From Candidatus Sungiibacteriota bacterium (GTDB lineage Bacteria > Patescibacteriota > Minisyncoccia > Sungbacterales > HO2-52-23), in the NCBI GenBank assembly GCA_016432465.1, contig CP066690.1, forward strand, positions 786,724 to 850,723: 64,000 nt of DNA, written 5' to 3'. The notes beneath the pieces were generated by a model that was not told the origin of the DNA, ran no database searches, and worked only from the letters and a program-made list of their open reading frames with translations. Within the stretch, counting starts at the first letter, position 1. Every line of letters starts with the position of its first letter. Below are positions 4,342-51,389 of this stretch, in pieces. The position numbers and the translations under genes were made by a program.

Positions 4342-4446
4342 TCCCCCCACCCTCCCAGAATACCCCGCAGCTTGCTGCGGGGATGAATGGGCGCCGTAGA
4401 AATCCTTCCCGCGGGGTCCACTACCCCGCTGGGAAGGTGGGGGGAT
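4342..4446. repeat. TIR element family copy 1 (TCCCCCCACCCTCCCAG ... CTGGGAAGGTGGGGGGA; ~105 bp)
   Basis: 17-bp terminal inverted repeats enclosing a GC-rich core. Near-identical inverted copy at 5820-5925, related copies at 14232, 44094 and 51346. Confidence 0.8.
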
Positions 4447-4476
4447 TTATTCAAACCTTTAAGTGTGCTATAGTAA

Positions 4477-4495
4477 TAGTGTATACAATACACTA
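4477..4495. promoter_or_regulatory. 19-bp perfect palindrome TAGTGTATACAATACACTA upstream of nadD-nrtR (candidate NrtR operator)
   Basis: Exact inverted repeat. The same half-sites recur at 15299, 16774 and 18319. Confidence 0.55.
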
Positions 4496-4523
4496 TATTT
4501 GCGTTATACTATTAAATACCAAC

Positions 4524-5108
4524 ATGAAGATTGGAATTTTGGGCGGGACGTTTGACCCGCCTCATAAGGGCCATAAATTAGTCGCGGGAATAGTTAAAAA
4601 AGAACTGGGGCTAGACCGGATTATTTTTATTCCCACCAAAGATCCGCCCCATAAAGTAAGGCCCAAAGTATCGCCGCAACATCGCTTTTTTCTGACCCGT
4701 CTTTTGGTAAGGGGTAAAAAGGGGTTCCTTGTTTCTGACTTGGAATTTAAACGTCCCGGGAAATCGTATACCGCCGACACCGTTCAGGAGCTTAGAAAAC
4801 TCTACCCCCAAGATAAGCTTTTTTGGATTATTGGCGCCGACGCCCTGCTTTATATGCCGCGCGGCTGGAAAGAGGGCTACAAGATTTTAGATAAGTGCCA
4901 ATTTGTAGTAGTAGTAAGGCCCGGCTATTCTTTGAAAAGCGTGCCCGGCCGCATCCTTCAGAAAGTTATTATTGTAAAAAATAGGGCGCGAGACGATATT
5001 TCAAGTACCGAGATACGCAGATACCTTAAGAGTGGGAAGAGTATTAAGGGTCTTCTCACGCCCCAACAAGAAATTTATATAAAACGTAAGCATCTGTATA
5101 AAACATGA
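4524..5108 (+). CDS. nadD: Nicotinate-nucleotide adenylyltransferase
   Basis: MKIGILGGTFDPPHKGH...PTKDPPHK (HxGH-type nucleotidyltransferase, NadD pattern). The longer ORF from 4281 is a read-through of the upstream repeat. Confidence 0.85.
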   Translation: MKIGILGGTFDPPHKGHKLVAGIVKKELGLDRIIFIPTKDPPHKVRPKVSPQHRFFLTRLLVRGKKGFLVSDLEFKRPGKSYTADTVQELRKLYPQDKLFWIIGADALLYMPRGWKEGYKILDKCQFVVVVRPGYSLKSVPGRILQKVIIVKNRARDDISSTEIRRYLKSGKSIKGLLTPQQEIYIKRKHLYKT

Positions 5109-5788
5109 TAAAACGACAATTTCTCAAAAAATTTGAAAAACCCATGATGACAGTTGATGTTGTCTTTTTTACTATTGATCAAAATAAGTTAAAAGTTCTT
5201 CTCGTAAAAAGGAAATACGATCCCTATGGGGGTTTCTGGGCCCTGCCCGGGGGGTTTATTAGAAAAAACGAAGAGATGTATGAAGCGGCCGCAAGAGAGT
5301 TAAAAGAGGAAACAGGGGTGCGTGGAGTGTATTTGGAGCAGCTTTATACCCTTGGAGCTTTAGGCCGTGATCCTCGGGGCCGGGTGGTTACCGTGGCCTA
5401 TTTTGCGCTGGCACCGCGCCCGACTAAGAAACTTAAGCCCTCTTATGATGCGGCAGAAGCCGGATGGTTTTTGGTGGACAAATTGCCGAGGCTCGCCTTT
5501 GATCATAAGAAAATTATTGTTTATGCTTTGAGACGGGTGCGTAATAAAATTCAATATACCAATGCGGCTTGGAGTTTGCTTCCCGCAACTTTTAGTCTGG
5601 GTGAGGGTCAAAAAGTTTACGAAAGTATCTTGGGCCACCGGCTGGATAAAAGAAATTTTCGCAAAAAGTTTCTATCCCTCGGATTGCTGCAAAAAATATC
5701 TAAGGTTCGCCGCGGGCTTCGTCAGCGTCCGGCCCAACTATATAAATTTAAAACAAAAAAATACGTGGAACTTAAAAGGTTTTTCTAA
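5105..5788 (+). CDS. Nudix hydrolase with C-terminal winged-helix region; NrtR-like NAD-metabolism regulator / ADP-ribose pyrophosphatase
   Basis: Intact Nudix box GFIRKNEEMYEAAARELKEETGV, C-terminal ~90-aa helix-rich extension, ATGA overlap with nadD, and NAD-gene context. Confidence 0.55.
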   Translation: MIKRQFLKKFEKPMMTVDVVFFTIDQNKLKVLLVKRKYDPYGGFWALPGGFIRKNEEMYEAAARELKEETGVRGVYLEQLYTLGALGRDPRGRVVTVAYFALAPRPTKKLKPSYDAAEAGWFLVDKLPRLAFDHKKIIVYALRRVRNKIQYTNAAWSLLPATFSLGEGQKVYESILGHRLDKRNFRKKFLSLGLLQKISKVRRGLRQRPAQLYKFKTKKYVELKRFF

Positions 5789-5819
5789 CCCTCAATATAA
5801 ATATGGCAGTCAAAAATAA

Positions 5820-5925
5820 ATCCCCCCACCTTCCCAGTGGGGTAGTGGACCCCGCGGGAAGGATTTCTACGGCGTCTATTCATCCTCGCAGCAAGCTACG
5901 GGGTATTCTAGGAAGGTGGGGGGAT
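5820..5925. repeat. TIR element copy 2 (inverted relative to copy 1)
   Basis: Reverse complement of 4342-4446 with a few substitutions. Confidence 0.8.
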
Positions 5926-5943
5926 AAACAATATCTTGGGTTT

Positions 5944-7860
5944 TTGCGCCTAGCAGCAGCGTCACCTCCTCTTAGAATTGGTGACGTAGACTATAATGTT
6001 AAAAAAATTTTGGAATTTGCCAAACGCGCTGATAAAGAGTCGGTTGATATCCTCGTATTTCCCGAGCTTTCCATTACTGCCTATACTGCGTCGGATTTAT
6101 TCTTTAACCGCACACTTCTTGCGCAGGCCCTTAACGGCCTTGCTAGAATTCGTCTGGCTTCCCGCGCTCTGGGCAGCGTACTTGTTGTGGGCGTTCCTAT
6201 TGCGCAGGAAGGAAAGCTTTTTAACACCGCGGCCGTGGTTTTTAAAGGAAAAGTTTATGGTCTCGTTCCGAAAACCTACGTTCCCGGATACAAAGAGTTT
6301 TATGAAGAGCGCTGGTTTGCTTCGGCCCGGGATTTGGTAGTCAAAGAAATTATGCTGGGTGGCCAGATGATTCCCTTTGGCACTGATATTTTGTTTCGTA
6401 TGCCCAAAATTTCCGGCGCGGTTCTGGGCGTGGAAATCTGCGAAGATCTTTGGATGCCTATGCCTCCCAGCTCTTTTCAGGTCCTCCGCGGCGCAACTAT
6501 TATTGCCAATCTTTCTGCATCCAACGATTTGGTGGGAAAGGCGGACTATCGCAGAGCGCTTGTTACCCAGCAGTCTGCCCGTGGAGTTTGTGCCTATGTT
6601 TATAGTTCCTGCGGCGTGCATGAATCAACTACGGATGTTGTTTTTGGGGGACATGCCTTGATTGCCGAAAACGGTGCGCTTCTTGCCGAGTCCAAACGAT
6701 TTATAAGAGAGGGCGAGATGACCCTCGCCGATATTGATGTAGAACATATGCTAGTGGATCGCGAACGCATGACGAGTTTCGGCGAATCAATACACGAGTC
6801 GCCGCAAAAAGAATTTCGTATAATTGATATTCCTTTACCAATACCTTTTCATCCGATTCCCAGACGTTTTATTGACCCTAATCCCTTTGTTCCTTCCAAT
6901 CCGGAGGAACGAGACCTTCGCGCCAAAGAAATTTTCTCCATTCAGGTGGCGGGGCTGGCCAAGCGTCTGGAGGCGGCCAAAATAAATAAAATGATTTTGG
7001 GTCTTTCTGGGGGACTGGATTCTACTTTGGCGCTGCTTGTAGCAGTTAAGACAGCCGAAACCCTTAACCTGCCTCATAAAAATATTTTTACCTATACCAT
7101 GCCCGGATTCGGAACTTCGCATCGTACTAAAAATAATGCTGTAAAACTGGCTCGGGCTTTAGGGGTAAACATAGAAACTATTGATATAATCAAAGGCGTA
7201 CTTCAGCAGTTCAAAGACATTAAACATAGTCCTAACGAAGAGAATACTGTCTTTGAAAATGCGCAGGCAAGATACCGCACCTATACTCTTATGGATAAGG
7301 CCAATCAAATTCATGGCTTGGTGATTGGCACCGGCGATCTTTCGGAAATTGCTCTGGGCTGGAATACTTACACCGGAGATCATATTGCGCATTACAACGT
7401 AAACTGCAGTGTACCTAAAACTTTGGTAAGATATCTGGTGCAATGGGCGGCTGAAACCCAAGTGGATAAAAAAACGCGGCGCATTCTTGAGGATATTTTG
7501 GCCACACCCATCTCACCCGAGCTTAGGAAAAATCATAAACCCGGCGAAATTTCTCATCGGACCGAAAAGCTTATCGGGCCTTACGAGTTGCATGACTTTT
7601 TCCTGTATCACTTTATCCGTTGGGTCTCTTCTCCTAAAAAGATTCTTTTCTTGGCGGAGCACTCATGGGGCAAAAAATACAAAACCCCAGAACTTAAAAA
7701 ATGGCTTAAGGTATTTTTGCAAAGATTTTTTGGCTCTCAATGGAAAAGGTCTGTGGCCACTGACGGCCCCAAGGTTGGATCGGTTTCTCTCTCTCCCCGC
7801 GGGGACTGGCGAATGCCGTCCGATGCCGAGGTTAAAATGTGGAGTGAGGAATTAAAATGA
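5944..7860 (+). CDS. nadE: Glutamine-dependent NAD+ synthetase (N-terminal nitrilase-like + C-terminal NAD synthase domains)
   Basis: VDILVFPELSITAYT (CN-hydrolase) and LGLSGGLDSTLAL (PP-loop). The start is proposed at TTG 5944 (LRLAAASPPLRIGDVDYN...), because the 5' extension of the ORF back to 5803 only translates the repeat. Confidence 0.8.
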   Translation: MRLAAASPPLRIGDVDYNVKKILEFAKRADKESVDILVFPELSITAYTASDLFFNRTLLAQALNGLARIRLASRALGSVLVVGVPIAQEGKLFNTAAVVFKGKVYGLVPKTYVPGYKEFYEERWFASARDLVVKEIMLGGQMIPFGTDILFRMPKISGAVLGVEICEDLWMPMPPSSFQVLRGATIIANLSASNDLVGKADYRRALVTQQSARGVCAYVYSSCGVHESTTDVVFGGHALIAENGALLAESKRFIREGEMTLADIDVEHMLVDRERMTSFGESIHESPQKEFRIIDIPLPIPFHPIPRRFIDPNPFVPSNPEERDLRAKEIFSIQVAGLAKRLEAAKINKMILGLSGGLDSTLALLVAVKTAETLNLPHKNIFTYTMPGFGTSHRTKNNAVKLARALGVNIETIDIIKGVLQQFKDIKHSPNEENTVFENAQARYRTYTLMDKANQIHGLVIGTGDLSEIALGWNTYTGDHIAHYNVNCSVPKTLVRYLVQWAAETQVDKKTRRILEDILATPISPELRKNHKPGEISHRTEKLIGPYELHDFFLYHFIRWVSSPKKILFLAEHSWGKKYKTPELKKWLKVFLQRFFGSQWKRSVATDGPKVGSVSLSPRGDWRMPSDAEVKMWSEELK

Positions 7861-7869
7861 TACCCGAAG

Positions 7870-8060
7870 CAGAGCCTAAAGAATTTAAAAAGTGGAGCCC
7901 CACGCGCAGAGCGCGTGGCACCCTGTGTTGCGGGGTTCCTCCCACGCTCGCGCGTGGGGCGGAACCCCGCACCGAGGGTCATTTCATCCACGGGAAGTAA
8001 GACTTCCCACGGGCAAAGCCCGTGGCCCTCTGGTGCGCGGGTAGCTATGGGGTGGCCACC
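7870..8060. repeat. Cluster of GC-rich palindromes (REP-like), including GGGAAGTAAGACTTCCC at ~7992-8008
   Basis: CCACGCGCAGAGCGCGTGG, CCCACGCTCGCGCGTGGG, GGGAAGTAAGACTTCCC and CACGGGCAAAGCCCGTG hairpins in ~190 bp of noncoding DNA. Confidence 0.6.
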
Positions 8061-8317
8061 CGCCGGAGGATTTATATGATGACGACTACAATACTGCTAA
8101 GAAAGCTTTAAGATATTTAGTGGAGTCAATAAACAGGAATTTTAAGGCTGCTTTATCTTTGGAAGAAATAGTCAAGCTATATCAAAAGTCCTATGAAGAT
8201 GTTTTGAGTAAAAAAAGACAGCGTAGGACAAGGTGATTAAATTTTATACCTGCTCGGTTAGGTGGTCTTCTCATCTTAATCATAACAACAGGCGGCCTTA
8301 AGGCCGCCTTGCTGGGT

Positions 8318-8590
8318 TTACTGGGCTTTGGTTTTTGCTTCTTGTTTTGCCCGGGCTCGGGCCAAAGCTATAGGAAGGAAGTATTTTTGCCAAATATTAT
8401 TGGCAACATTTAGCAGTGTCGCGCCTACCATCCAACAGCCAAAATATAATCCTATTCCAAATACTACTCCCTTAGAATTCCCACTCTCGAAATATCCATC
8501 CGGCCCAATAACTCCTAAAAGGTAAAATAGGTTCCACGCCAGAGGTGTAAGCATAAAAACAGTTCCCAAAAGCGCATAAAAAATATACAT
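8318..8590 (-). CDS. Small membrane protein (2 predicted TM helices)
   Basis: Hydrophobic 90-aa ORF with a basic C-terminal tail. A hairpin GGCGGCCTTAAGGCCGCC lies just downstream at ~8292-8309. Confidence 0.35.
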   Translation of the reverse strand: MYIFYALLGTVFMLTPLAWNLFYLLGVIGPDGYFESGNSKGVVFGIGLYFGCWMVGATLLNVANNIWQKYFLPIALARARAKQEAKTKAQ

Positions 8591-8682
8591 TTTCTCTCCT
8601 TTCGGGTCGGCCCTAGGTTACCCTAAGCCAGCCACCTTTTCTATTATAGAATTTATAATGATATACGTCAAGTACAAAAGCT

Positions 8683-8716
8683 TGACAATTACGCTAGAGT
8701 TTGTTATTCTTTATAG
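8683..8716 (+). promoter_or_regulatory. Sigma-70-like promoter (TTGACA-17-TATTCT) plus GGGAGG RBS for pncA
   Basis: Consensus -35 and an acceptable -10, about 30 bp upstream of ATG 8743. Confidence 0.45.
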
Positions 8717-8742
8717 AGGGCCTACAAAGGGAGGCTAGAACA

Positions 8743-9336
8743 ATGTCTAAAGATGCGCTGATTATTGTTGATGTTCAGAACGATTTTTGTCTGGGTGGAT
8801 CCTTGCCTGTGCCGAACGGCGATAAAGTGGTAGAGCCGTTGAACAGAATGATTGGTAAGGCGGCAAAAAAAGATGGAGGGCTTATAATCGCTTCGCGCGA
8901 TTGGCATCCAAGAGAAACAAACCATTTTGCCGAGTTTGGGGGACGCTGGCCCGTACATTGCGTACAGGGAACCAAGGGTGCTGAATTTCACCCCGGACTT
9001 TTACTGCCAGCCGACAAAGCCATTATAGTTTCCAAGGGCATGGCAAAAGATGAAGATGCCTACTCTGCTTTTCAGGGTTCCGCAGTGCTTACGACCGCAG
9101 ATGATATAACTACTGTAACTATGTATTTGCGCGATATTCTGGGCGGCTGCGGGGTTGATACTCTTTATATCGGGGGTCTAGCCACTGATTATTGTGTAAA
9201 AGCAACTGCGCTTGATGCGCGCAGATTCGGATACGAAGTATATTTGCTGATTGATGCTTGCCGGGGGGTGGCCGCAGAAACCACCTCGGACGCCTTGATA
9301 GAAATGGCCCGGGCAGGGGTGAAGTTTATTTTATAG
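8743..9336 (+). CDS. pncA: Nicotinamidase/pyrazinamidase (isochorismatase family)
   Basis: MSKDALIIVDVQNDF... catalytic Cys in IGGLATDYCV, metal-binding DWHP. Confidence 0.8.
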   Translation: MSKDALIIVDVQNDFCLGGSLPVPNGDKVVEPLNRMIGKAAKKDGGLIIASRDWHPRETNHFAEFGGRWPVHCVQGTKGAEFHPGLLLPADKAIIVSKGMAKDEDAYSAFQGSAVLTTADDITTVTMYLRDILGGCGVDTLYIGGLATDYCVKATALDARRFGYEVYLLIDACRGVAAETTSDALIEMARAGVKFIL

Positions 9337-9397
9337 ATGACATCATAATTAAGTTTTTGGAGCCGCCTGTTGGCGGCCTTTAGATTATACATTTTAG

Positions 9398-9426
9398 ATC
9401 GTTAGATTTGCCTTTAAAACATAAAT
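9398..9426 (+). promoter_or_regulatory. Sigma-70-like promoter TTGCCT-17-TATAAT for pncB (preceded by hairpin terminator ~9364-9380)
   Basis: Spacing and hexamers are good, with a GCGGAGGA RBS before ATG 9486. Confidence 0.5.
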
Positions 9427-9485
9427 CTTGTATAATAAATTTAGAGTTTCCAAGGGGTCTTTGACTGCCAGCGGAGGATACAACA

Positions 9486-10955
9486 ATGCTGGAGGCGCAG
9501 CTTATTTTTGACCGTTACCATGCAACAATGGATCAGTTTGCTTCGGGAGAGCACGCCCTGATTGGTGGTAAACCTTTAGCCGACCTGCCGGCCACATTTT
9601 ACGTATCGCAGCGCAAACTTTCTTTTGCTCCTTGTGTTGGTCATGAGCGTCTGCTGGAGGGTTTGATGAGACGAAACATTGATGTACCCAGAGCGCGGTT
9701 TCTTCGTGAGGATAAGGCAGGACTTTCTCGAACCGCCGAGCGTCTTGCTTCAACCTCTAACCCTTTCTTGATTCGTTGTGTAAAGCCCGGAACTATTATG
9801 TTCGCCCGGGAGCCTTTTGCAGATATCACAGGTCCTTTTGCCGAGACGCAGATGATGGAAGTAAGGTTTGAGCACGCATTTGACGAACCCATGACGGTTG
9901 CGGGCAGGGCTTTAGCCATACGGCTTGATGCGGGAGAACGCTGGATTTCTGATTTTTCCTTACGTCGGGATGGAAGTCTTGGTAGAGCGGTGGACATTGC
10001 CAAGTACTCTTATATCGGAGGTTTTGACGATACCTCCAACATGGAAGCCGCGTTTCTTTTGGACATTAATGCCGTGGGCACCATGGCTCATTATCTGGTG
10101 CAGGCGTTTCTGGTGTCTAGTCGCTATCCCCAGCGTTCGGAAAAAGGAGTACGCAAACACTTTCAACAAGCATGTTTTGAACAATGGTTAGATGCGCACC
10201 CCAAAGGCACAACCCTGCTGTTGGACACTATTACCTTAAGGCTTGGAGTAATCCACACTATTCGTGCTGCTAAAAGTTCGGAAGGCAGACGCGGGGCTTT
10301 AAGGGCAGTACGTATTGACTCTGGTAATTTGATTAAAAACGCGCTTTGGGTGCGTGCGATGCTGGATGCCAATGCCCTTGAAGACGTTAAGATTATTCTC
10401 ACATCTGACCTTGACAGGAATCTGATTGCCGAGATTGTTAAACGCTGTCCGGCAGTATACGGATTTGGCGTAGGCACAAAACTTGCCGCCGAGGTGGAAA
10501 ACGTCGCCGGTGTTATATTTAAGCTTTCCCAGATTGATGACCTGCCGACCCTCAAGTGTTCCGAAACTCCCGGGAAAGAAACTCTCCCCGGTCGCCTGCA
10601 GGTATGGCGGTGTATTGATCATGAGGGATTTTTCGTCAAAGATGTAATTGGTACTGATGGTTGGGCGGCAAGCGAACAAGATAGAAAAGAATTTTCTTCT
10701 GCCTTTCCGCTGTTGCAGCCGTGGTGGGGCAATGCTTTCAAGACTGACTTTCTGCCTTATGAACAGCCGCGTATGCCGACCATTCAGGAACAGCGCGTGT
10801 TTGTACAGCAACAGGTTAAAAGATTTCGTGATATCCATAACTATCCGGTAGAACTCTCCAGTCTGACCAAAGAACGGATTAGGTATCTTACAGAAATGAT
10901 GACCCGTGATGAGATGGGAGAGAGTGGGGTCGTCATGGTTGACTATCCATCGTAG
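9486..10955 (+). CDS. pncB: Nicotinate phosphoribosyltransferase
   Basis: 489 aa with the GFGVGTKL motif and a NAPRTase-like N-terminus. Adjacent to pncA. Confidence 0.65.
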   Translation: MLEAQLIFDRYHATMDQFASGEHALIGGKPLADLPATFYVSQRKLSFAPCVGHERLLEGLMRRNIDVPRARFLREDKAGLSRTAERLASTSNPFLIRCVKPGTIMFAREPFADITGPFAETQMMEVRFEHAFDEPMTVAGRALAIRLDAGERWISDFSLRRDGSLGRAVDIAKYSYIGGFDDTSNMEAAFLLDINAVGTMAHYLVQAFLVSSRYPQRSEKGVRKHFQQACFEQWLDAHPKGTTLLLDTITLRLGVIHTIRAAKSSEGRRGALRAVRIDSGNLIKNALWVRAMLDANALEDVKIILTSDLDRNLIAEIVKRCPAVYGFGVGTKLAAEVENVAGVIFKLSQIDDLPTLKCSETPGKETLPGRLQVWRCIDHEGFFVKDVIGTDGWAASEQDRKEFSSAFPLLQPWWGNAFKTDFLPYEQPRMPTIQEQRVFVQQQVKRFRDIHNYPVELSSLTKERIRYLTEMMTRDEMGESGVVMVDYPS

Positions 10956-10961
10956 TTTTTG

Positions 10962-10998
10962 AAGCCGAAACGCAACCGCGTTTCGGATTTTAGTTTTT
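10962..10998 (+). terminator. Rho-independent terminator (GCCGAAACGCAACCGCGTTTCGGATTTT)
   Basis: Hairpin plus T-run after the pncB stop. A second hairpin CCGAGAGTTCACGCTCTCGG at ~11013-11032 serves the convergent minus-strand gene. Confidence 0.7.
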
Positions 10999-11047
10999 TG
11001 AAAATGATAAAGCCGAGAGTTCACGCTCTCGGTCTTTGACTTAACTG

Positions 11048-11872
11048 TTAACTGCAGGGCAAGGCGTTTAAGGTTTGTAGCATCAACTTGCCTTCGCCGG
11101 ACTCGCCCTGCTCCGGATCGCCAACAAAAATAGTATAAGAGCAGTTTTTGATGGGGTTTTCGTCATCTTTTCTGGTGAAGTCTTGAGACTCCCAACGTTC
11201 TTGTGTGGAAATAAAGGCGGTGATAGTTATATGGTGGCTCACCAAAAGAACTTCTCTTTCGGAGAACTCACGGATAAGTTTTCCCGAAAGAAGCCGCATC
11301 CGTCCCTCTACCCCCAGAACATTTTCTCCCTGCGGATAGCAATAGTCATATTTGCCGTCTCTCAAGTAAATGTACCTTTGTTCTGGGTGGAAGGTTTCCA
11401 TTACTCTCCAGTTATTGTAGAGACCGGCAAGCCCGATGTCTATTTCTCTAATAAGCGGTTCAGTCTCCTGTTTTATTCCAGCAAGTTCCGGCCATCCGCG
11501 GGTCATTCCTTCCAGTGTCTGTTTGGTGCGAAGATACGGCGAGACCAGAATAACGTCGGGAAGCCGTGCATCAGGAAGAATTTTCAGGGTTCGCCCCAGA
11601 CGTTCTGCCTGCAGCCAGCCGGTATCAGTTAGGGGTGTTAGTCGGTTACTGTAAGGCAGGAAATACTTTCTATACATTTTTACTGCCAACCCACGCAGTT
11701 CCTTTGAGGCTTTTACATACGGCCAATGTCTTTGGAACTTATCTAGATTAAATTCCTGCTCAAAGAGCTTTACAAAACGCTGATATTCCGGATCTTTCCT
11801 TTGCTGTTCTTTGACTCTGTTAAATTCTGATTCTCCGTGGCGCACTAAGATGACTTTACGCGGCCATTTCAT
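11048..11872 (-). CDS. Histidine phosphatase superfamily protein (phosphoglycerate-mutase-like)
   Basis: N-terminal ILVRHGESEFN (RHG catalytic motif) and C-terminal LLVSHH second histidine. Confidence 0.6.
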   Translation of the reverse strand: MKWPRKVILVRHGESEFNRVKEQQRKDPEYQRFVKLFEQEFNLDKFQRHWPYVKASKELRGLAVKMYRKYFLPYSNRLTPLTDTGWLQAERLGRTLKILPDARLPDVILVSPYLRTKQTLEGMTRGWPELAGIKQETEPLIREIDIGLAGLYNNWRVMETFHPEQRYIYLRDGKYDYCYPQGENVLGVEGRMRLLSGKLIREFSEREVLLVSHHITITAFISTQERWESQDFTRKDDENPIKNCSYTIFVGDPEQGESGEGKLMLQTLNALPCS

Positions 11873-11957
11873 TCGTTAGTCCCCCCGCAAGGTTTCTTTA
11901 ATCGTACCACGATTTCTCTGATTTTGCAAACTAAAACCGAAGCATGAGCTTCGGTTG

Positions 11958-13145
11958 CTATCTTCCCTCCAAAATGGTCTGCATAATCATTCCGACAGTT
12001 GACCAGTCAAGCAGTCGTGTCTCAATAATTTCGCCCAATGTTTTTACTTCAAGTGAGGTTTGTTCTCCTTCAGCGATATTTCCAAAGACCGTGCGGTTTC
12101 GAGCATTAGTCTCAAAATACTCAATTTCTTCGGGTTTAAGTCGGATAGAAAAAAGGTGGGTGTGATGCGCAGAAAAAGTTCCGGCAACCTGACGCGAACC
12201 ATGGGCAACCAGGCGGCATTTTTCAAATTCTTTTCCGGTTTCTTCCTTAATCTCCTCCAGGGCAATTTCTTCCGGTGTCAGCCACCATTGGGGTGAGGAG
12301 CCGCTGGGCAGCTCGTGGATAAATCCATCCGGAGTTCTCCCCGAAGGCCGGAACTCTTTTACCAAAACAATTTTTGTATTCAGCGGGTTGAAAGCTTCCT
12401 GCCATAGCACTGTGGCCGAGGTATCGGTTCTGGACAGGGCAAAATCAAACTCGCTTGTTTTGAATCTATTTTCCGAGGCAATAAAGATCCGTGCCTGTAG
12501 TATCCATCTGTAAACAAATGACCCCTTAGCATTCTTGCGGGAGCACCAAAGTACCTCGGCCCCTTCCAGTATATTTCCTGCTGTCTTTAGACCTTCATAC
12601 CACAATTGGAATGATTTCGCGTTCCAGATGTGAAGCGGTATGTCGCATTCACCGCCATTTCTCTCGGCGCCGCCTCCAATGTAGGAGACCGCAAAATCAA
12701 GGGTGTCTTTCAGCGTTTGAAAGCGCGGGACGTCTTGCCTGTCTGCCGTCAGTTCAAGATATTTATTTCTAGGAAGATCAGGTGGAGCGCCATAAACTAT
12801 TTTGCCCGAGCGTACCCAAAGACCAAATTCCACGTTGGTGGTAAAGGCAGGCATGGTAGTAAGGTTTCTTGGCACCCAAAACACAATAAGATCCGCCCTG
12901 TTAAGGCCTATTCGCTCCCAAGCAATCTGGTGTTTGTATTCTTGATTGTTTATATCTTCTTCTCTTGGTCCGTCGCGATTTTCCGGTATAAATACATGCC
13001 CGTCATAGCCAAGTTCCTCCAGAATTTTGATTGCCCCGGGAATGCGCCAAGAGGGAGTAGTGCGTTTCCTCGGCGTCGGCCCTGCAAGAAATATAGATTT
13101 TTTAACGTGCGTAGGAAAAGGTTCTCTGGTATAAATCAGTTCCAT
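11958..13145 (-). CDS. Two-domain protein: N-terminal Rcl/DNPH1-like nucleoside 2-deoxyribosyltransferase-fold domain fused to C-terminal Nudix hydrolase
   Basis: N-terminal IFLAGP...ADLIVFWVP...TTNVEFGLWVRSGK fits the Rcl/NDT pattern. The C-terminal half has the Nudix box LPSGSSPQWWLTPEEIALEEIKEETG. Confidence 0.5.
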   Translation of the reverse strand: MELIYTREPFPTHVKKSIFLAGPTPRKRTTPSWRIPGAIKILEELGYDGHVFIPENRDGPREEDINNQEYKHQIAWERIGLNRADLIVFWVPRNLTTMPAFTTNVEFGLWVRSGKIVYGAPPDLPRNKYLELTADRQDVPRFQTLKDTLDFAVSYIGGGAERNGGECDIPLHIWNAKSFQLWYEGLKTAGNILEGAEVLWCSRKNAKGSFVYRWILQARIFIASENRFKTSEFDFALSRTDTSATVLWQEAFNPLNTKIVLVKEFRPSGRTPDGFIHELPSGSSPQWWLTPEEIALEEIKEETGKEFEKCRLVAHGSRQVAGTFSAHHTHLFSIRLKPEEIEYFETNARNRTVFGNIAEGEQTSLEVKTLGEIIETRLLDWSTVGMIMQTILEGR

Positions 13146-13260
13146 GACGTCCTCCCCCTGCTGGCAATGTTTAAAGTTTAAACTTTTTTGTTAAAAAAAA
13201 CAAGCGAAAACCCACACCGAATTTTGGTGTGGGAAGTCTGACTTTCTGTGGGTGATTGGG

Positions 13261-14142
13261 CTATAGTATTACTGCTCCTTCATATTGCCAGTAGGGCCGG
13301 ATACGTCCGTTAGGAGAAAAAATTATATTTCTCAATTCTTCCGAGTCTGGCTGGATAGAAAGACAGTTATTAAGACAGAAATTCTGGCCGTTGACGTCAA
13401 AAACTACTGCACCATGGGTTAGGGTATACAGTCTCCTTCCTTGTGTAAAAAGAAATTGCTGGATATCCCCAAACTGTTCAGTGGTTAGCTGGTGCTCACT
13501 GGTCCACTCCCATACTTTTTTGTCTCTGGCCAGTCTTTCCTCTGGTTTTTCGACCGGCGTTCCGGTAAGTTGTTCCACCCTGTTTGTTTTGGCAAATTCA
13601 ATAAGACGTGTCAGCTCTTTGCTGTTATCAATAAACCCCCCGGTCAGAACGCAAGTTAGTCGCACCGAGAAAAGCATGTCGTGCAATGTTTGGATAAGAC
13701 GCGGCAGGTCAAAATAACTTTTGGGAGAGTGAAAAAAGAATTCTCCATTTTTCCCCGGATCGTAGTGGGCAATAGATATGGCAATAGTAGTCATACCAAG
13801 TTCGTACCACATTTTGAGGTGGGAAGCGTATACTTCCGGTTTTCGAGCAAGCAGACTGCCGTTGGTTTGCAGTTCAATAAGAGGAAATTCAAAGGGCTCA
13901 AGCTCTTGTAGAAATCGCGTAATTTGTTTTGGAAAGATCGTAGGTTCACCCTTGCCGGTCAGCATGACTGTGGTACATCCGCATTGTTTGGCTAGTCGGC
14001 AGGCAATTTTGAAGTTCCGCCAATTTACCTCCGGCTCCTTAGTCTCTATCCCCTCAGGTAGTGTCATTTTGGAAACACAGGGCGAGCAACAGGCATTACA
14101 GGCCTCACTTCCGGCGATAATGCTGAAGGTCTGGATGCGCAT
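13261..14142 (-). CDS. Radical SAM enzyme (small activase/QueE-like fold, family unassigned)
   Basis: CNACCSPC equals CX3CX2C, plus the glycine-rich TVMLTGKGEPT SAM-binding motif. 293 aa. Confidence 0.6.
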   Translation of the reverse strand: MRIQTFSIIAGSEACNACCSPCVSKMTLPEGIETKEPEVNWRNFKIACRLAKQCGCTTVMLTGKGEPTIFPKQITRFLQELEPFEFPLIELQTNGSLLARKPEVYASHLKMWYELGMTTIAISIAHYDPGKNGEFFFHSPKSYFDLPRLIQTLHDMLFSVRLTCVLTGGFIDNSKELTRLIEFAKTNRVEQLTGTPVEKPEERLARDKKVWEWTSEHQLTTEQFGDIQQFLFTQGRRLYTLTHGAVVFDVNGQNFCLNNCLSIQPDSEELRNIIFSPNGRIRPYWQYEGAVIL

Positions 14143-14231
14143 CTTCTACCCTCCGGTCCTGCGGTCTCTTTAAGGGTAACATAGAAATATTACTTTGTCC
14201 AGCCAAAAAGGAAGCCGCCCGCGGGGTTTCA

Positions 14232-14331
14232 TCCCCCCACCCAGGGAACCGCGGCTGGAAGGCCGCGGAGGAATGGCATAGTCTCTCGCGAAACGAGAAA
14301 CACAAGATAACCCACCCGGGAGGGTGGGGGG
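14232..14331. repeat. TIR element copy 3 (variant termini CCCCCCACCC/GGGTGGGGGG, different core)
   Basis: Inverted G/C-run termini enclosing the CCGCGGCTGGAAGGCCGCGG hairpin. Confidence 0.6.
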
Positions 14332-14333
14332 AC

Positions 14334-15206
14334 TCATCTAAACGCGAATTTTTCCTGCAGGCTTTTGAAAAAATAGTTTTTTTCAAGTTCCAAAAAGCGC
14401 ACCAATCTCTCGGATTTTTTAATAATTATGCGGTCTCCCGGGCGCAGCGCGAGAGCCCGTTCCGTGTCAGTCGAGAGCATGACGTCCACCGGCTCTTTTG
14501 TATCCTGCAGTAGAAATCGGCCACTTTTTCTAAAACCCCCAATCTTCACGGTGATGGTTCTGTCCCTTTTAATAACGAGGCTCGGCGTAGGCAGACTATG
14601 GTCCATTAATTCTGTGATGATAAAACATTTGATGTCGGGCATAACAATGGGGCCGTGGGCGGATAGATTGTAGGCAGTAGAGCCGGTTGCCGTAGAAACC
14701 AAAACCCCGCTGCCGTGGATTTTTTGTACACAATGCTCGTCCACATACACTTCAATATCAACAACCCCCGAAAGATTCTGGACCGCAATCTCATTCAAGG
14801 CGTATCCGGACAAAATTCTTTTGCCTCTACGTTCAACCACTGCTCGCATCATCATATGCGGTACCACGCGGTATTTACGGCGCAAAACACTAAAGAGTCC
14901 CGCTACGAAGTTTTTGGGGTTTCTGACGGAGGCAAGAAATCCTACATGACCAAGGTTCAGGCCCAAAATACGCGGATTCCAACGCTGAAATTTTTGAGCA
15001 GCTTCCAGTATGGTTCCATCCCCGCCCAGTACAATCAAAAGTTCCGGGGCTGATTTTTTTTGCCGCGGAACCGCATTGGATGCCAGAATTTGAATTTTGG
15101 TAAAACGTTTTTTTAGGAGTCGGGCAAGTTTGTTTTCCCAAAATTTGGCAGCTTTAACTTCCGTCCGAAAATAAAAAGCTACTTTTTTAAATGCTAAGCC
15201 GGACAT
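14334..15206 (-). CDS. nadK: NAD+ kinase
   Basis: GGDGT motif (LIVLGGDGTILEAA) and NE/D motifs; 290 aa. Confidence 0.8.
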   Translation of the reverse strand: MSGLAFKKVAFYFRTEVKAAKFWENKLARLLKKRFTKIQILASNAVPRQKKSAPELLIVLGGDGTILEAAQKFQRWNPRILGLNLGHVGFLASVRNPKNFVAGLFSVLRRKYRVVPHMMMRAVVERRGKRILSGYALNEIAVQNLSGVVDIEVYVDEHCVQKIHGSGVLVSTATGSTAYNLSAHGPIVMPDIKCFIITELMDHSLPTPSLVIKRDRTITVKIGGFRKSGRFLLQDTKEPVDVMLSTDTERALALRPGDRIIIKKSERLVRFLELEKNYFFKSLQEKFAFR

Positions 15207-15261
15207 GCGGTAATTTTATCACGTTTAGCCCTTTTTTGCCAAGTAGACTCCGGTTAACACC

Positions 15262-15290
15262 TTGACTTATTTTCACCGGCGTACTATACT
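15262..15290 (+). promoter_or_regulatory. Sigma-70-like promoter TTGACT-17-TATACT
   Basis: The -10 ends 8 bp before the palindrome at 15299. Confidence 0.5.
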
Positions 15291-15298
15291 AATACTGG

Positions 15299-15317
15299 TA
15301 GTGTAGCGTGTACACTA
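15299..15317. promoter_or_regulatory. 19-bp perfect palindrome TAGTGTAGCGTGTACACTA (candidate NrtR operator) in the nadK/15342 divergent region
   Basis: Exact inverted repeat, same family as 4477. Confidence 0.55.
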
Positions 15318-15341
15318 TTTGGTTCTTTTGGGGAGGATGTT

Positions 15342-15803
15342 GTGAGGACGGTTGAGATTGTGGTACGCAACAAAGACGGGAAATTATTTTTCTACGGTGA
15401 TGGGATTTATTTTAATTTTCTTAGTGCCTTTCCTTTTTGGGGAGGAGAGCTGTGTTTACTACGAGATGGCAAGATCATTGATCGCGCTCGCATTGATGAA
15501 CACGGCACACATGCGCCTACTGTATGCTTTTTGGGGCTAAAGAGTGTGGGCACGTATGCAACAACAGATCTTTTTGTCGTTCAGTTCCAAGAGGGTGATC
15601 TGCTAAAAATTGAGTTTCTGGACACGGTCGGCGAATTACGGCAATGGGTTATTAATGACTTTATTGATACGGAGGTTTGGAAGCGGGTAAAAGAGAGTGG
15701 TCATACCACCCCATCCTATGCGGTTCTGGAGTTATATGCGGAAGAATGGGAGCGTTTATGTAAAGAGATTAAGGATAAAAACATAGATACATTTGAAATT
15801 TAA
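15342..15803 (+). CDS. Hypothetical protein (GTG start, RBS GGGAGGA)
   Basis: 153-aa ORF immediately downstream of the operator-bearing promoter. Confidence 0.4.
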   Translation: MRTVEIVVRNKDGKLFFYGDGIYFNFLSAFPFWGGELCLLRDGKIIDRARIDEHGTHAPTVCFLGLKSVGTYATTDLFVVQFQEGDLLKIEFLDTVGELRQWVINDFIDTEVWKRVKESGHTTPSYAVLELYAEEWERLCKEIKDKNIDTFEI

Positions 15804-15911
15804 GAAACAAGGCACCCGTCTAAGGGTGCTTTAATGCAAAATTTTTTGATTGACTGTTGTATTTAAAGGGGGTACTATTGTTTAGGTTTGGATACAAGGG
15901 ACTCTTAAATA

Positions 15912-16718
15912 ATGCGGCAGCCGCTTCATAAAAAGGCGCGTCTGGAAAAGCCGTCTGTATATCCCGAAAGATTTTCTGTCCCCGACGACAAAGTAGACTG
16001 GTGTAGCTATTTTGGAGAATACCGCCCGCCTTATTTTGTGGCACCAGAAATTTTGGAGCGGTTTTATCAAAATCCGTCAGAAGTAGATCCAGAAGATTGC
16101 TGTAAGATTAAAAGGCCGTTTTACAGTTTTGAAAATAAGGTGGAGCTTGATAGTTCTAATCGGCCGAGAAATCCCAGAGGCAGAACCGGTCTTGCGGGTA
16201 GGGGCATACTTTGGAGGTGGGGAGCTAACCTAGCAGTTGATACGGTTTTAAGCAGGCTTAATGCAGAAACGGACGAGTTGGAGTTGCTTCTTATAAATAG
16301 AAAAGACACCGGAGAGCTCGCTCTTCCTGGGGGTATGGTGAATAAAGGTGAAAAGATTCGGGAGGCACAAGAGCGGGAATTTGAAGAAGAAACAGGTCTC
16401 AAGATTTCTATGGAAGACTCCGAAACGGTTTATTGCGGTTATGTGGATGATCAAAGAAACACAGATAACGCTTGGATGGAAACCGTGGCCTCGCATAAGC
16501 ACATGGGTAGTAATCAGGCAAGTACTTTAAGTTTTCGGGCTGGCGATGACGCCGAGAATGTTCTTTGGCATTCTTTGAAACCCGAGCTCATCACTAATCT
16601 TTATGCCAGTCATGACGAAATTGTTAGGCTGGCTATGTATAGGTTTTACGATCGCTGTGGCGGTTGGTTGACTGCAAAAACAAAGGAACAAATTGAGGCA
16701 GTGATAGTCCGTCAGTAG
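15912..16718 (+). CDS. NUDT9-like ADP-ribose pyrophosphatase (Nudix)
   Basis: RNPRGRTGLAGRGILWRWGAN, Nudix box GGMVNKGEKIREAQEREFEEETGL and RNTDNAW resemble the NUDT9/ADPRase family. Confidence 0.6.
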   Translation: MRQPLHKKARLEKPSVYPERFSVPDDKVDWCSYFGEYRPPYFVAPEILERFYQNPSEVDPEDCCKIKRPFYSFENKVELDSSNRPRNPRGRTGLAGRGILWRWGANLAVDTVLSRLNAETDELELLLINRKDTGELALPGGMVNKGEKIREAQEREFEEETGLKISMEDSETVYCGYVDDQRNTDNAWMETVASHKHMGSNQASTLSFRAGDDAENVLWHSLKPELITNLYASHDEIVRLAMYRFYDRCGGWLTAKTKEQIEAVIVRQ

Positions 16719-16773
16719 TACGGACTTTTTTCATTGACATATTGGCTATTACAGGCTATAATTTAAATAGCAG

Positions 16774-16792
16774 TAGTGTGCTATGCACACTA
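16774..16792. promoter_or_regulatory. 19-bp perfect palindrome TAGTGTGCTATGCACACTA just downstream of TTGACA-17-TATAAT promoter (candidate NrtR operator)
   Basis: Exact inverted repeat overlapping the predicted transcription start of the 16834 gene. Confidence 0.55.
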
Positions 16793-16833
16793 TTTGATCC
16801 TTGAGTAATTGGTGCCTGTAGAGGAGAAAGAAA

Positions 16834-18168: not shown

Positions 18169-18318
18169 CGGTGGAGGTTTTTCTTTTATCTTTCGTCCTC
18201 CAGAAAACGCGGCAGCTTGGGAAGTCAGACTTCCCTTGCTGCCGAGTAGTTCATCACCTTTATCATTGAGCGGTTGATGCCCTCTTGACTTTTTTTGAAG
18301 AGCGCGTTACACCTTACT

Positions 18319-39575: not shown

Positions 39576-39798
39576 ACCTTGATAGGAGTAAAACAGAGGG
39601 CCGAGGGGCGCAACGGGGATTTATTCTTTCCCGCTCGCCACGTTAGAGATCCGCATTGTAAATGCGGCAGATACCATTGGCATCTCATCTCTAACGGGGC
39701 GAGCTGTTCCCGCAAAAAACTCCCGTGCTGGGAGTTTTTTGTTTCCAAACAATAGTGGGTTGAGGCGTGGGGGTAAAATGTTGTAAGATATAAAAAAT

Positions 39799-44093: not shown

Positions 44094-44274
44094 ATCCCCC
44101 CACCTTCCCAGCGTGGTATTGGACCCCGTGGGAAGGATTTCTACAGCGCCCATTCATCCCCGCAGTCCAGCCTTCGTCCCGCTTCTAGCGGGACTACAGT
44201 CGCACGCCGCCATAGCTTTGGCGACGGCGCGCGGAGTAGGCCAAGCTACGAGGTATTCTGGGAAGGTGGGGGGA
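44094..44274. repeat. TIR element copy 4 (~180 bp, with ~75-bp internal insertion)
   Basis: Termini TCCCCCACCTTCCCAG / CTGGGAAGGTGGGGGGA, core collinear with copy 2 plus extra GC-rich segment. Confidence 0.75.
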
Positions 44275-48551: not shown

Positions 48552-49579
48552 TGTCCGATCCACGGCATAAAATACGGCTGGGTCTGGTGGGACTTGGGTA
48601 TTGGGGGCCAAAACTTCTGCAGAAATTTTCCCGAATTGAGGCAGCGGAAGTAGTGCGGTTTTGCGAGAAGTCAGAAGATCTGCTGCGCGATTTTGCGGAG
48701 CGCTACCCCCTGCGCTACCCGCCCACCGTCTCTTTTGAGGAGTTAATTTCTAACGAATCATACCCGCTCGATGCCGTTATTGTTGTAACCCCGCCGGAAA
48801 CCCATGCTGCGCTTGTAGCACAGGCAATGCTACGGGGCTTGGACGTATTTGTGGAAAAGCCGCTGGCCACTAATTTGCAGGACGCGTTGTATCTCGCCAA
48901 GTTGGCACGGGAAAAGAACCGGGTACTTATGGTTGATCATACTTTTTGTTACGACCACGCCCTTCTTTATGTAAGAAATTTATTGTCAGATCGGAAGTTT
49001 GGTACTGCCGACTTTCAAGGAAGCGCGTTTGAATGGCTGGGCGCGCGGAAAAAGCCTCAAGGCCCCAGTATTCTTTGGGACTCCGGACCTCACGCCGTTG
49101 CCGCCATGTTATTTTTACTGAAGAAAACACCAGAGCGGATTAGCATGCGTGTCGTAGAAAATCTCTCCGAAAACATACCAGCAACGATGACCGGATATGC
49201 AGAGTTTACCGACGGGCATAAGGCAGAAATTCGTCTTGCTTGGCAAGACGGTGTATTGGATGGCAAGATCGTAGAAAAAGCAGCTCGGGTTGCCATTTTT
49301 GGGGATAGAAGAAAGGTTTTGTACGAAGGCACTTTTGGAAAGCGGGAGGTGCTGCTGCATCATGATTGGGACGGAGCAATACTCGCACCCGGACTCACCT
49401 ATGAGGATGAACCACTGCAGACCGTATGTGAAGAGTTTATTCGCGCCGTGGCTGAGGGCGGCTCCGCTTTTACGGACGGAGACTTTGGTGCCAAGGTCGT
49501 GGCCATTCTTGAGGCGGCAGAACGTTCCTGTATGCGGGAAGGAGAACCGATACCAATAGTTTTGCCCCAACTTTCTTAA
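48551..49579 (+). CDS. Gfo/Idh/MocA-family NAD(P)-dependent oxidoreductase
   Basis: IRLGLVGLGYWGPKLL Rossmann N-terminus; 342 aa. Confidence 0.7.
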   Translation: MSDPRHKIRLGLVGLGYWGPKLLQKFSRIEAAEVVRFCEKSEDLLRDFAERYPLRYPPTVSFEELISNESYPLDAVIVVTPPETHAALVAQAMLRGLDVFVEKPLATNLQDALYLAKLAREKNRVLMVDHTFCYDHALLYVRNLLSDRKFGTADFQGSAFEWLGARKKPQGPSILWDSGPHAVAAMLFLLKKTPERISMRVVENLSENIPATMTGYAEFTDGHKAEIRLAWQDGVLDGKIVEKAARVAIFGDRRKVLYEGTFGKREVLLHHDWDGAILAPGLTYEDEPLQTVCEEFIRAVAEGGSAFTDGDFGAKVVAILEAAERSCMREGEPIPIVLPQLS

Positions 49580-49614
49580 GCTACCGCCAGAAAAATTTTG
49601 GCGGTATTCTTTAA

Positions 49615-51330
49615 ATGATTCCTTTGTTGCGTAACAACTATATCCGATTTTTTATTTCCGCCGCTGTTGCAGCGGGCGTCTTTTATTTTTTATGGAAAGT
49701 GGTTTTACGTGAAGATTTATCGCTCCTTTCTTTTAATTTTGCTGTACGTTGGGGAATGGCGGCGCTGGTTCTAAACTTTGTACCGCTTCTGGTAAAAAGT
49801 ATACGATTTCATTATTTTTTACGCGGTCAAGTTCCCAAGGGGACAATTTTAGGCACGGCCGCGATCCATAGTTTTTGGAACTATCTGCTTCCCTTCCGGG
49901 TAGGTGAACTTTCCTACGTTTATCTCATAAAAAAAACCGGTAGAGTCAGTACCGCAGAAACCATAACTTCTCTGGTGGCCGGACGCATTTTTGATGTTTT
50001 TGTGGTCATGCTTTTATTAAGTATCGCATCTTTTTTACTGTTCACGCCGAACGTAGTAGGATCTTTAGCTATCCAGTTTTTGTGGGGAGGAGTTTTGGTT
50101 GGTCTGGTGGGAGCCCTGATTTTGGGTAAACAGGCGGATAAGCTGACGGCTTTTTTGGGGCGTAGATCCTTAAGGTTTCAGGAGAAAGGATTAAAAGTTT
50201 TTGCTAAAATTTTTACCAACTTCCGGGGGATAGTTACGGCCTTGGGAAGGCTCAATACTACCTCAAGCCTTGCCGTCTTTTTTATCCTTTCTATTTTTGT
50301 TTGGGTTAGCGACTTTATTTTTGTTTGGACGGCTTTGCGCGCTGCCGGGCTTGTACTGTCTCCCGCGTCAGCGATTTTTATTGCGGCTTTTCCGGTGATT
50401 GCCGGTCTTCTGCCCCTGCAAACACCCGTGGGAATTGGTACTTTTGAAGGAACAATGCTCGCGGGGTTTGCGCTACTGGGCATTACCGGCCCCCAAGCAG
50501 TTTCCGCCAGCATTATTCTGCACGCCGAGTTGGTTTTTTTCTCTTTTATTTATGCATTGCTGGGTTACTGGTTTTATGTGCGTCCGATACTGGCAAAAAA
50601 AATAAGCGATTCTCCTGAAAGCCACACCGAGTTTTATCAGGCCCTCCAGAGTCCGGCTGGTGATTTTAGAAACCGCAATTTAGCAGAGCTTCTTGTTTCT
50701 TATGCCAAAGGAAGTTCTTTGCTTGACGTCGGGTGCGGCTATGGACTTTTGTTGTTGTTGGCCAAGCAGCGTGGTTATCAGGCCGTAGGAATTGAGCCTG
50801 ATCCGAAAATACGGTTAGTAGGGGAAGAGGCGTTTGGTCGGTTAGAAATTTACCCGTCTGCTATTCGTGATTTTAATCCGCCCAAACTTTTTGATACGGT
50901 AACAATGATTGACGTTTTGGAGTGTTTGGAGCAGGACAAAGAAGCGCTGGCGCGCGTTGTTTCCTGGGTGAGTCCGGGGGGGCGTCTTGTCCTAGCCGTA
51001 CCCGCGCACCCCTTGCTTTTCGGGACACGGGATAAGATGTTGAAATATTTCAGACGTTATAGCAAAAAAGACCTCGTGCCAGTTTTGCAAAACCTCGGTT
51101 TTAATAAAATTTATACACGCCACTGGAACGTACTGGGAGTGTTACCCTACGCCGTTCTTTATAAATTGTTATCTTTTCGCTCGCACTTTGAAGGTTGGCG
51201 CGGAGGCGGCGCCAACGGCGTAGTCAGGACTCGGCTCTCGTCACTTCTGAACTTCTGGTTCAGACACGTAGAAAATCGTCTTAATGCGGGATTGGGCCTG
51301 ACGCTGATTGTGGTGGCAGAGAAGGAATAG
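49615..51330 (+). CDS. Fusion: N-terminal polytopic membrane domain (flippase-like/UPF0104-type) + C-terminal class I SAM methyltransferase
   Basis: About 8 TM helices, then LDVGCGYGLLLLLAKQRGYQAVGIEPD (motif I) and a VSPGGRLVL post-I motif. Confidence 0.5.
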   Translation: MIPLLRNNYIRFFISAAVAAGVFYFLWKVVLREDLSLLSFNFAVRWGMAALVLNFVPLLVKSIRFHYFLRGQVPKGTILGTAAIHSFWNYLLPFRVGELSYVYLIKKTGRVSTAETITSLVAGRIFDVFVVMLLLSIASFLLFTPNVVGSLAIQFLWGGVLVGLVGALILGKQADKLTAFLGRRSLRFQEKGLKVFAKIFTNFRGIVTALGRLNTTSSLAVFFILSIFVWVSDFIFVWTALRAAGLVLSPASAIFIAAFPVIAGLLPLQTPVGIGTFEGTMLAGFALLGITGPQAVSASIILHAELVFFSFIYALLGYWFYVRPILAKKISDSPESHTEFYQALQSPAGDFRNRNLAELLVSYAKGSSLLDVGCGYGLLLLLAKQRGYQAVGIEPDPKIRLVGEEAFGRLEIYPSAIRDFNPPKLFDTVTMIDVLECLEQDKEALARVVSWVSPGGRLVLAVPAHPLLFGTRDKMLKYFRRYSKKDLVPVLQNLGFNKIYTRHWNVLGVLPYAVLYKLLSFRSHFEGWRGGGANGVVRTRLSSLLNFWFRHVENRLNAGLGLTLIVVAEKE

Positions 51331-51345
51331 ACGTATTCCGGATTT

Positions 51346-51389
51346 ATCCCCCCACCTTCCCAGAATACTCCGCTGGGAAGGTGAGGGGA
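51346..51389. repeat. TIR element copy 5 (minimal: termini only, 44 bp)
   Basis: TCCCCCCACCTTCCCAG-AATACTCCG-CTGGGAAGGTGAGGGGA. Confidence 0.75.

Follow-up and report, generated by a model that had tools for sequence, protein, structure and literature searches.

A candidate MITE-like palindromic element family of Sungbacteria-type Parcubacteria, with in-frame copies inside coding genes

We analyzed a 64,000-nt stretch of Candidatus Sungiibacteriota bacterium (contig CP066690.1, positions 786,724 to 850,723; hereafter the window), which carries five copies, c1 to c5, of a short palindromic repeat bounded by G/C-run terminal inverted repeats (TIRs). Positions 4521-20322 hold nadD, nrtR, nadE, an isochorismatase gene (PncA-like), the NAPRTase gene, nadK, and genes for a NUDIX protein and a DAO/Mqo-type oxidase (NadB-like), as well as nadA and nadC, a dense cluster that makes the NAD regulon of this genome of the candidate phyla radiation (CPR) nearly complete. 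A perfect 8-3-8 palindrome, TAGTGTAT-ACA-ATACACTA, at 4477-4495 just upstream of nadD overlaps a promoter-like site (4482-4510) and is, from its sequence, probably the NrtR operator. A near-identical box, TAGTGTAC-TAA-GTACACTA, is found upstream of nadD (4473-4491) in L105, a metagenome-assembled genome (MAG) of a related member of Sungbacteria.

The five copies share the termini TCCCCCCACC(TTCCCAG)/(CTGGGAAG)GGTGGGGGGA. With up to three mismatches allowed, the 17-mer terminus occurs nine times in the window, against 0.23 expected, and none of 100 shuffles reached nine. A covariance model trained on 14 members of the family recovered all five copies in an unfiltered scan of the whole window and found no sixth copy above noise. 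An earlier, sequence-only reading had proposed such a five-copy family, which these counts bear out; its copy coordinates were right to within one base, with one extra A/T included at some ends. The corrected positions are listed in Table 1.

Table 1. Element copies in the window, the nadE gene, and element-bearing proteins encoded elsewhere
Feature	Position	Strand	Length	Flanks	Placement and description
c1	4342-4445	+	104 bp	TTTA 4338-4341 and TTTA 4446-4449	Intergenic, between the upstream gene's terminator (4278-4309 plus T-run) and the nadD promoter/NrtR box; orientation A (TIR then AGAATAC); covariance model 115 bits
c2	5821-5924	-	104 bp	TAAA 5817-5820 and TAAA 5925-5928	In frame within nadE after codon 6; conceptual translation SPHLPSGVVDPAGRISTASIHPRSKLRGILGRWGD
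c3	14232-14332	+	101 bp	TTCA 14228-14231, CTCA 14333-14336	Diverged subfamily, different two-hairpin core
c4	44095-44274	-	180 bp	TAAA/TAAA	Between the genes for the kinase/DnaJ protein and the PMT_2 glycosyltransferase, intergenic; c2 type plus ~76-nt expansion
c5	51347-51389	+	43 bp	TTTA/TTCA	Minimal form consisting of the two TIRs and AATACTCCG, 9 nt between termini; intergenic, with the LPG_synthase_TM/methyltransferase and Wzy_C/TPR genes on either side
nadE	5803-7860	+	685 aa		Glutamine-dependent NAD synthetase, host gene of c2
L050	aa 315-350				DnaE
L089	aa 167-202				NAD-dependent DNA ligase LigA; element divides the adenylation domain into two Pfam matches
L086	aa 118-137		59 bp		MurD; linker before the P-loop strand; core wholly missing
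L092	aa 179-213				MiaA
P0001					LigT-like 2',3'-cyclic phosphodiesterase, window's genome
P0002					Hypothetical protein, window's genome
P0003					Prepilin-type protein, window's genome
P0004					NTP transferase, window's genome
P0006					NTP transferase, elsewhere
P0007					Methyltransferase-like protein, elsewhere
P0008					POR gamma subunit, elsewhere
P0009					GT4 glycosyltransferase, elsewhere

The element has a 15-17 bp G/C-run TIR (TCCCCCCACCTTCCCAG), after which come hairpin 1, whose loop varies, a spacer that is conserved (GATGAATGG...AAATCCTTCCC), and hairpin 2, nested into the right TIR. The TIR arms (17-18 nt) are 94-100% complementary, and the GC content of the element is 57-67%. 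Copies c1 and c2 lie in opposite orientation and are 93% identical once oriented alike, as had been noticed before, and the expanded, minimal and different-core copies of the sequence-only reading correspond to c4, c5 and c3, respectively. The c4 expansion (~44165-44240) is structured and sits in the hairpin 1 loop, whereas c5 looks like the product of a deletion between short direct repeats (ACCCCGC). Copy c3 shares only the outer 11 nt of its termini (TCCCCCCACCC/GGGTGGGGGGA) with the family and keeps the general two-hairpin plan; its right flank overlaps the nadK stop codon (minus strand, ORF end 14334). All five copies are flanked by short direct repeats, imperfect in c3 and c5.

The main feature of the family, which the sequence-only reading had missed, is its in-frame insertion into coding genes. 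That reading took the N-terminal part of the open reading frame (ORF) starting at 5803 for a spurious translation of the repeat. Judged from the reading frame, however, c2 is genic and not intergenic. The N-terminus of NadE reads MAVKNK, then 36 residues, then QYLGFLRLAAAS, and without the insert (MAVKNK|QYLGFLRLAAA) it fits the leader of 8-12 residues and the conserved GF-x-R-[VL]-AAA motif of 10 aligned homologues, which argues against a spurious extension. The 36 residues are absent from the aligned NadE homologues, and the NCBI annotation likewise starts nadE at ATG 5803. The 119 other NadE homologues listed are 629-693 aa long and cover 90-98% of the 685-aa query. One homologue, P0026 (682 aa), has an unrelated N-terminal insertion of ~35 aa between duplicated NFGF/WGF at the same place as c2, which may represent an independent insertion of another element.

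The same loci without the element are found in relatives. In L105 and in L106, nadD, nrtR, nadE and the NrtR box are retained, and no element occurs upstream of nadD or in nadE. The copies are therefore not ancient structures at positions fixed among relatives, the condition under which the mobile-repeat proposal would have been abandoned. These empty sites also bear on the suggestion of a composite transposon, with c1 and c2 as its ends, that brought nadD-nrtR to the locus. The two 93%-identical inverted copies do bracket nadD-nrtR, but the three genes are adjacent in the element-free L105 (in L106 two genes lie in between), c2 lies within the nadE reading frame, and a separate TTTA pair flanks each copy, so that we give this suggestion next to no credence. 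The nrtR-nadE spacer of L105 (5660-5990) is crowded with GC-rich hairpins. One of them (5672-5707) resembles hairpin 1 plus the GATGAATGG motif without TIRs, and may be a relic of the element or belong to a related family.

Related copies were found at unrelated loci in at least 14 other contigs, from groundwater. A 22-nt diagnostic pattern matched 10 metagenome contigs, mostly from groundwater; the covariance model added copies in L088b and L104, and protein searches added others. Scanning 185,579 species genomes with the 17-nt TIR gave 84 matches, almost all of them chance singletons in unrelated phyla, and one true paired copy, the 104-bp element of L050 in Parcubacteria bacterium Gr01-1014_33; the window's source genome is absent from the species representatives that were scanned. 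A scan of viral contigs and GenBank phages found no copy. In protein space, a six-frame concatenated peptide query matched nine proteins, and an exhaustive HMMER profile search with one reading frame of the element against 1.84 billion protein-cluster representatives gave 15 matches at E <= 1e-3, several of them of low complexity. With so few matches, the family is narrow and rare in public data. In total, ~22 copies were examined, and no two loci have the same neighboring genes. Extrapolated from the five window copies, the whole genome would carry ~70. Most are 101-105 bp long, with mini forms of 43, 59 and 89 bp and forms of 113, 122 and 180 bp expanded in the hairpin 1 loop. Two Logan short-read contigs of the same organism that carry nadD-nrtR (L095 and L096) end inside c1 and c2, and contigs that end inside an element are the usual signature of a multi-copy repeat. 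In L085, a degenerate second copy (724-870) adjoins a 104-bp copy in the opposite orientation. Its hairpin 1 loop expansion begins TCCATCCTTCGT... and resembles that of c4 (TCCAGCCTTCGT...); a long subfamily of ~180 bp is therefore present in other genomes too.

Coding copies are not confined to nadE. Pfam scans showed that the ORFs running through the copies in DnaE, LigA, MurD and MiaA encode otherwise intact housekeeping proteins, and alignments with solved PDB homologues are gapped exactly at the insert positions. The LigA insert lies in a variable loop and the MurD insert in an interdomain linker. Directly after the 36-aa element in LigA, a further segment of ~34 aa (NEKIEELAEKHREIKGIFEKYPRVKTAVLRLVLPN, residues 203-236) is present where E. 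coli LigA has six residues, and by sequence this site looks like an insertion-tolerant hotspot. Four further element-bearing proteins (P0001-P0004, with HYW89_ tags) belong to the window's own genome. Because P0010, from a Candidatus Sungiibacteriota MAG (923,469-bp contig), is 100% identical to the window's NadE, these four are placed on the same contig as the window.

The phosphodiesterase P0001 gives a clean view of an insertion. Its 36-residue insertion is missing from all 50 aligned homologues and is bracketed by a duplicated Phe(-Ile), corresponding to the target TTTAT, which is present once in the homologues. The MurD insert is likewise bracketed by a duplicated F-I (TTTAT) that is single in homologues. 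In the AlphaFold2 model of P0001 (mean predicted local distance difference test score, pLDDT, 86.9), the host 2H-phosphoesterase fold has a pLDDT >90, and the insert (residues 101-135) is a coil with a pLDDT of ~45-51 between strand 89-94 and helix 136-149. The insert, which is presumably translated, is thus predicted to be a disordered surface loop outside the fold.

The dimensions of the element suit coding sequence. With the 4-bp flank duplication, the 104-bp element adds 108 bp, or 36 codons. The sum of length and 4 is divisible by 3 in all genic copies (lengths 104, 59, 101, 113 and 122), which are also free of stop codons, whereas this does not hold for the intergenic copies c4 (180), c5 (43), L090 (105) and L094 (103). 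In the six-frame translation of all copies, one sense frame always meets a conserved TGA in GATGAATGG and one antisense frame always runs into a TAA of the flank. The others are open in at least one of the two subfamilies, and 3-4 of the 6 frames are stop-free. The genic copies occupy only subfamily-open frames, namely phases 0 and 1 in sense and phases 0 and 2 in antisense. At the two ends, the runs of C and G translate as Pro-Pro and Gly-Gly. Considering the 108-bp increment, these Pro-Pro/Gly-Gly ends and the stop-free frames, a coding insertion would often add only a flexible loop of 36 residues.

The same arithmetic bears on whether the genic copies might instead be removed after transcription; the element would then act like a tiny intron, cut out where the terminal hairpin has its base, with the ends re-ligated and the host proteins unaltered. 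A precise long hairpin does join both element ends, the copies lie in essential genes, and CPR bacteria are known for insertions in their rRNA genes. However, splicing would make constraints on frame and length unnecessary, and this is the main argument against such excision: all five genic copies obtained from the unbiased DNA search lie in subfamily-open frames and obey the length rule that several intergenic copies break, and the loop expansions of genic copies are multiples of 3 (9, 18, 21 and 24 nt). The copy in MurD is a coreless 59-bp form. Moreover, no match to group I or group II introns or to riboswitches was found in Rfam 15 for the window and three element-bearing loci. We consider excision highly improbable.

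All copies in the window fold far better than shuffled controls (z = -3.4 to -7.7), and compensatory changes preserve the palindrome. Pairing holds in 92% of cells, and double-sided changes occurred in six pairs, compared with 2.8 in shuffles (9 of 500). A variant in one TIR arm has its counterpart in the other, as with ATCCAGCACC/GGTGCTGGAT in L088b. The sequence-only reading had offered long structured RNA hairpins as an alternative, and such stable folds and compensatory changes would also be expected of a functional structured RNA or cis-regulatory hairpin, such as a terminator, an mRNA stabilizer or an NAD-related riboswitch. Furthermore, three of the five window copies lie beside nadD, nadE and nadK, and the 3' end of orientation A (GGAUUUAUU) is weakly terminator-like. 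Against this, no Rfam family was matched at gathering or E-value thresholds: in the window only tRNAs reached the gathering score, and the hits at E <= 1 in the three element-bearing loci were chance hairpin matches. Copies c1 and c2 are oppositely oriented relative to co-directional genes, the copies in DnaE, LigA, MurD, MiaA and others have no link to NAD, and relatives keep the NrtR box without the element. G-U and A-C mismatches, counted by hand, are about equally frequent on the two strands, and selection on one RNA strand is thus not indicated. A role as an RNA is accordingly very doubtful. The idea of an NAD riboswitch was rejected on the orientation of the copies, the genic copies elsewhere and the element-free loci of relatives with an NrtR box, and that of a terminator because the element 3' end matches the consensus weakly and the canonical terminator of the upstream gene already precedes c1.

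The flanks of the copies point to mobility. In 19 of the 22 copies, the left flank is N-TTTA, the right flank is TTTA-TT and the core lies in a single orientation; the exceptions are L092 and L088b, in which the core is flipped, and L102, which has TTTA/TAAA flanks. TTTA thus stands on both sides in most copies, as expected of the target-site duplication. Several insertions lie on stop or start codons, among them c3 on the nadK stop codon and L097b on a TAA stop. The flanks of c3 change together (TTCA/CTCA, sharing TCA), which favors a true target duplication. The flanks can be read just as well as a 3-bp TNA duplication plus one element base instead of the 4-bp TTTA; this would presumably point to IS5/Harbinger-type DDE enzymes, a lead and not a test.

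We therefore interpret the family, with a probability of roughly 0.8, as a non-autonomous, TIR-bounded palindromic mobile element (MITE-like, for miniature inverted-repeat transposable element) of Sungbacteria-type Parcubacteria. The copies are 43-180 bp long (below ~500 bp), have no transposase coding capacity, end in TIRs with a flanking duplication, and occupy non-homologous loci in the same and other genomes, with empty sites at orthologous loci, in agreement with the MITE family suggested by the sequence-only reading. The element would insert at N-TTTA|TT, leaving TTTA on both sides, and would be mobilized by a transposase supplied in trans. Copies would persist where the frame is open and the protein tolerates them in a loop or linker, as with Rickettsia palindromic elements, and we infer that they are neutral or nearly neutral rather than functional.

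Several points weigh against this interpretation. Pfam scans of ~50 window ORFs found no transposase, the window and the related loci yielded neither a transposase nor a full-length insertion sequence (IS) with these TIRs, and none of these loci has a wide-spaced pair of TIRs. No presence/absence polymorphism was found between near-identical genomes, and the relatives with empty sites are only ~64-69% identical in NadE. The pairwise identity of 60-96% among copies gives no sign of a recent burst. The tie between core orientation and an asymmetric target (19/22) is not what a DDE transposase usually produces from identical TIRs. In addition, translation of the inserts is inferred and not observed.

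The orientation bias in particular raises the alternative that the same family moves as single-stranded hairpin DNA via an HUH/Y1-type enzyme (cf. the IS200/IS605-derived PATEs and REPINs) and not by DDE cut-and-paste. Insertion would then occur 3' of TTTA in fixed orientation, and the right-hand TTTA would be part of the element instead of a target-site duplication; the element would be 108 nt long, which leaves the frame arithmetic unchanged. The fixed orientation of the core relative to the asymmetric TTTA...TTTATT flanks fits such a route, as do the subterminal hairpins at both ends and the folding of the whole element as one long hairpin. However, perfect TIRs of 17 bp are foreign to IS200/IS605 ends, the joint change of the c3 flanks is better explained by target duplication than by an element-borne cleavage site, and no Y1 or RAYT gene was found by Pfam among the ~50 window ORFs. 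We hold this route to be unlikely. A small chance also remains for something more novel, either mRNA excision by an ultra-small protein-assisted intron-like element or an undescribed orientation-specific hairpin-DNA mobility targeting TTTA|TT.

Among known repeats, a MITE-like element can be compared with the bacterial MITEs (Correia/NEMIS, ERIC, Nezha, and the IS5/Harbinger-type, Tourist-like elements with TNA/TWA duplication). Like these, the CPR element is small, non-coding and hairpin-forming, has TIRs and direct repeats, and occurs as dispersed copies with deletion and expansion derivatives. It differs from them in that no parent IS was found in the window or related loci. In addition, its core orientation follows that of an asymmetric target, its overall length is matched to 36 codons, and essential genes host many of its copies. 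It resembles REP/REPIN-RAYT elements and PATEs in forming hairpins, in having a fixed tetranucleotide beside the hairpin and in its orientation-specific placement. However, REPs are extragenic palindromes of 20-40 nt with a GTAG head and a RAYT gene, whereas the CPR element has genic copies and no GTAG head, and PATEs lack long TIRs, in contrast to the 17-bp TIRs found here. To our knowledge, neither REP/REPIN elements nor PATEs show systematic in-frame genic insertion.

By analogy, the closest counterpart is the Rickettsia palindromic elements (RPEs). In passages of PMC3767692 and PMC10969869, RPE-1 to RPE-10 (Ogata et al. 2000 Science) are described as palindromes of 100-150 bp that lie in ORFs without destroying the frames, with DNA polymerase III alpha among the hosts. 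Both systems are palindromic repeats of a reduced genome, located in intergenic DNA as well as in frame in unrelated housekeeping genes; both include DNA polymerase III alpha as a host and place the encoded peptide at the protein surface. In contrast to RPEs, the CPR element is sharply bounded by 17-bp G/C-run TIRs with a constant TTTA beside them, and its copies are read in at least four frame/orientation combinations, whereas RPEs encode one conserved peptide. The hosts also differ, being free groundwater CPR bacteria (Patescibacteria) in one case and intracellular pathogens of the Alphaproteobacteria in the other. Homology to the RPE families is very unlikely, a judgment from host phylum and GC content (57-67% for the element vs 32% for the Rickettsia genome; PMC3767692).

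Other repeats and islands were observed nearby. Another family of palindromic repeats, bounded by CCCCGTTAGAG.../...CTCTAACGGGG, occurs at 39633-39704 and at 60803-60873, the latter within murB (60124-61161), in a segment of ~50 aa (aa 224-278) that is missing from type II MurB structures; from the sequence, this may be another in-frame palindromic insertion. Two more MITE-like units (59876-60017 and 61224-61375) flank murB. One has the TIR TCCCCCACCCAACTTTGAC/GTCAAAGTTGGGTGGGGA, a length of ~125 bp and a G/C-run end like that of the main family, and the other has 36-nt arms (AACCCCGCACTAATTTTGC...) and a length of 152 bp. Immediately following tRNA-Asn (31828-31900), positions 32000-39100 form a low-GC region (39-40% vs 46-48%). 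Its products include a fusion of a LexA-DNA-binding/S24 peptidase with an N6/N4 DNA methylase (minus strand, 32834-34315) and a DUF4238 protein, and several of its ORFs have no Pfam match. The region is probably an integrated element or defense island. In L098, a different MITE of ~127 bp (~3000-3126; TIR TCCCTCACCCTTGGAGGAT/ATCCTCCAAGGGTGAGGGA, flanked by TGA at either end) is located precisely at the ATG of an NTP-transferase gene, with the start codon region duplicated; its counterpart L097, 92% identical, is without it. The difference between L097 and L098 was considered as a case of the present family and rejected, as it consists of a scaffold gap plus this different MITE.

In a search of open-access full text, we found no paper on MITEs in Parcubacteria or on palindromic in-frame elements in CPR. 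The family described here would be a second, independent occurrence of RPE-like palindromic elements, as selfish DNA residing within essential protein genes, in another lineage with reduced genomes, which suggests that the phenomenon known from Rickettsia may be a general outcome where intergenic space is scarce (the CPR genome is ~0.9 Mb). For the annotation of CPR MAGs, the element accounts for 36-residue "CPR-specific insertions" in DnaE, LigA, MurD, MiaA and NadE, as well as for spurious N-terminal extensions and assembly breaks. As a natural probe, it can also show where conserved enzymes tolerate insertions. Finally, the strict TTTA|TT targeting, together with the orientation bias, points to a further transposition system in CPR.

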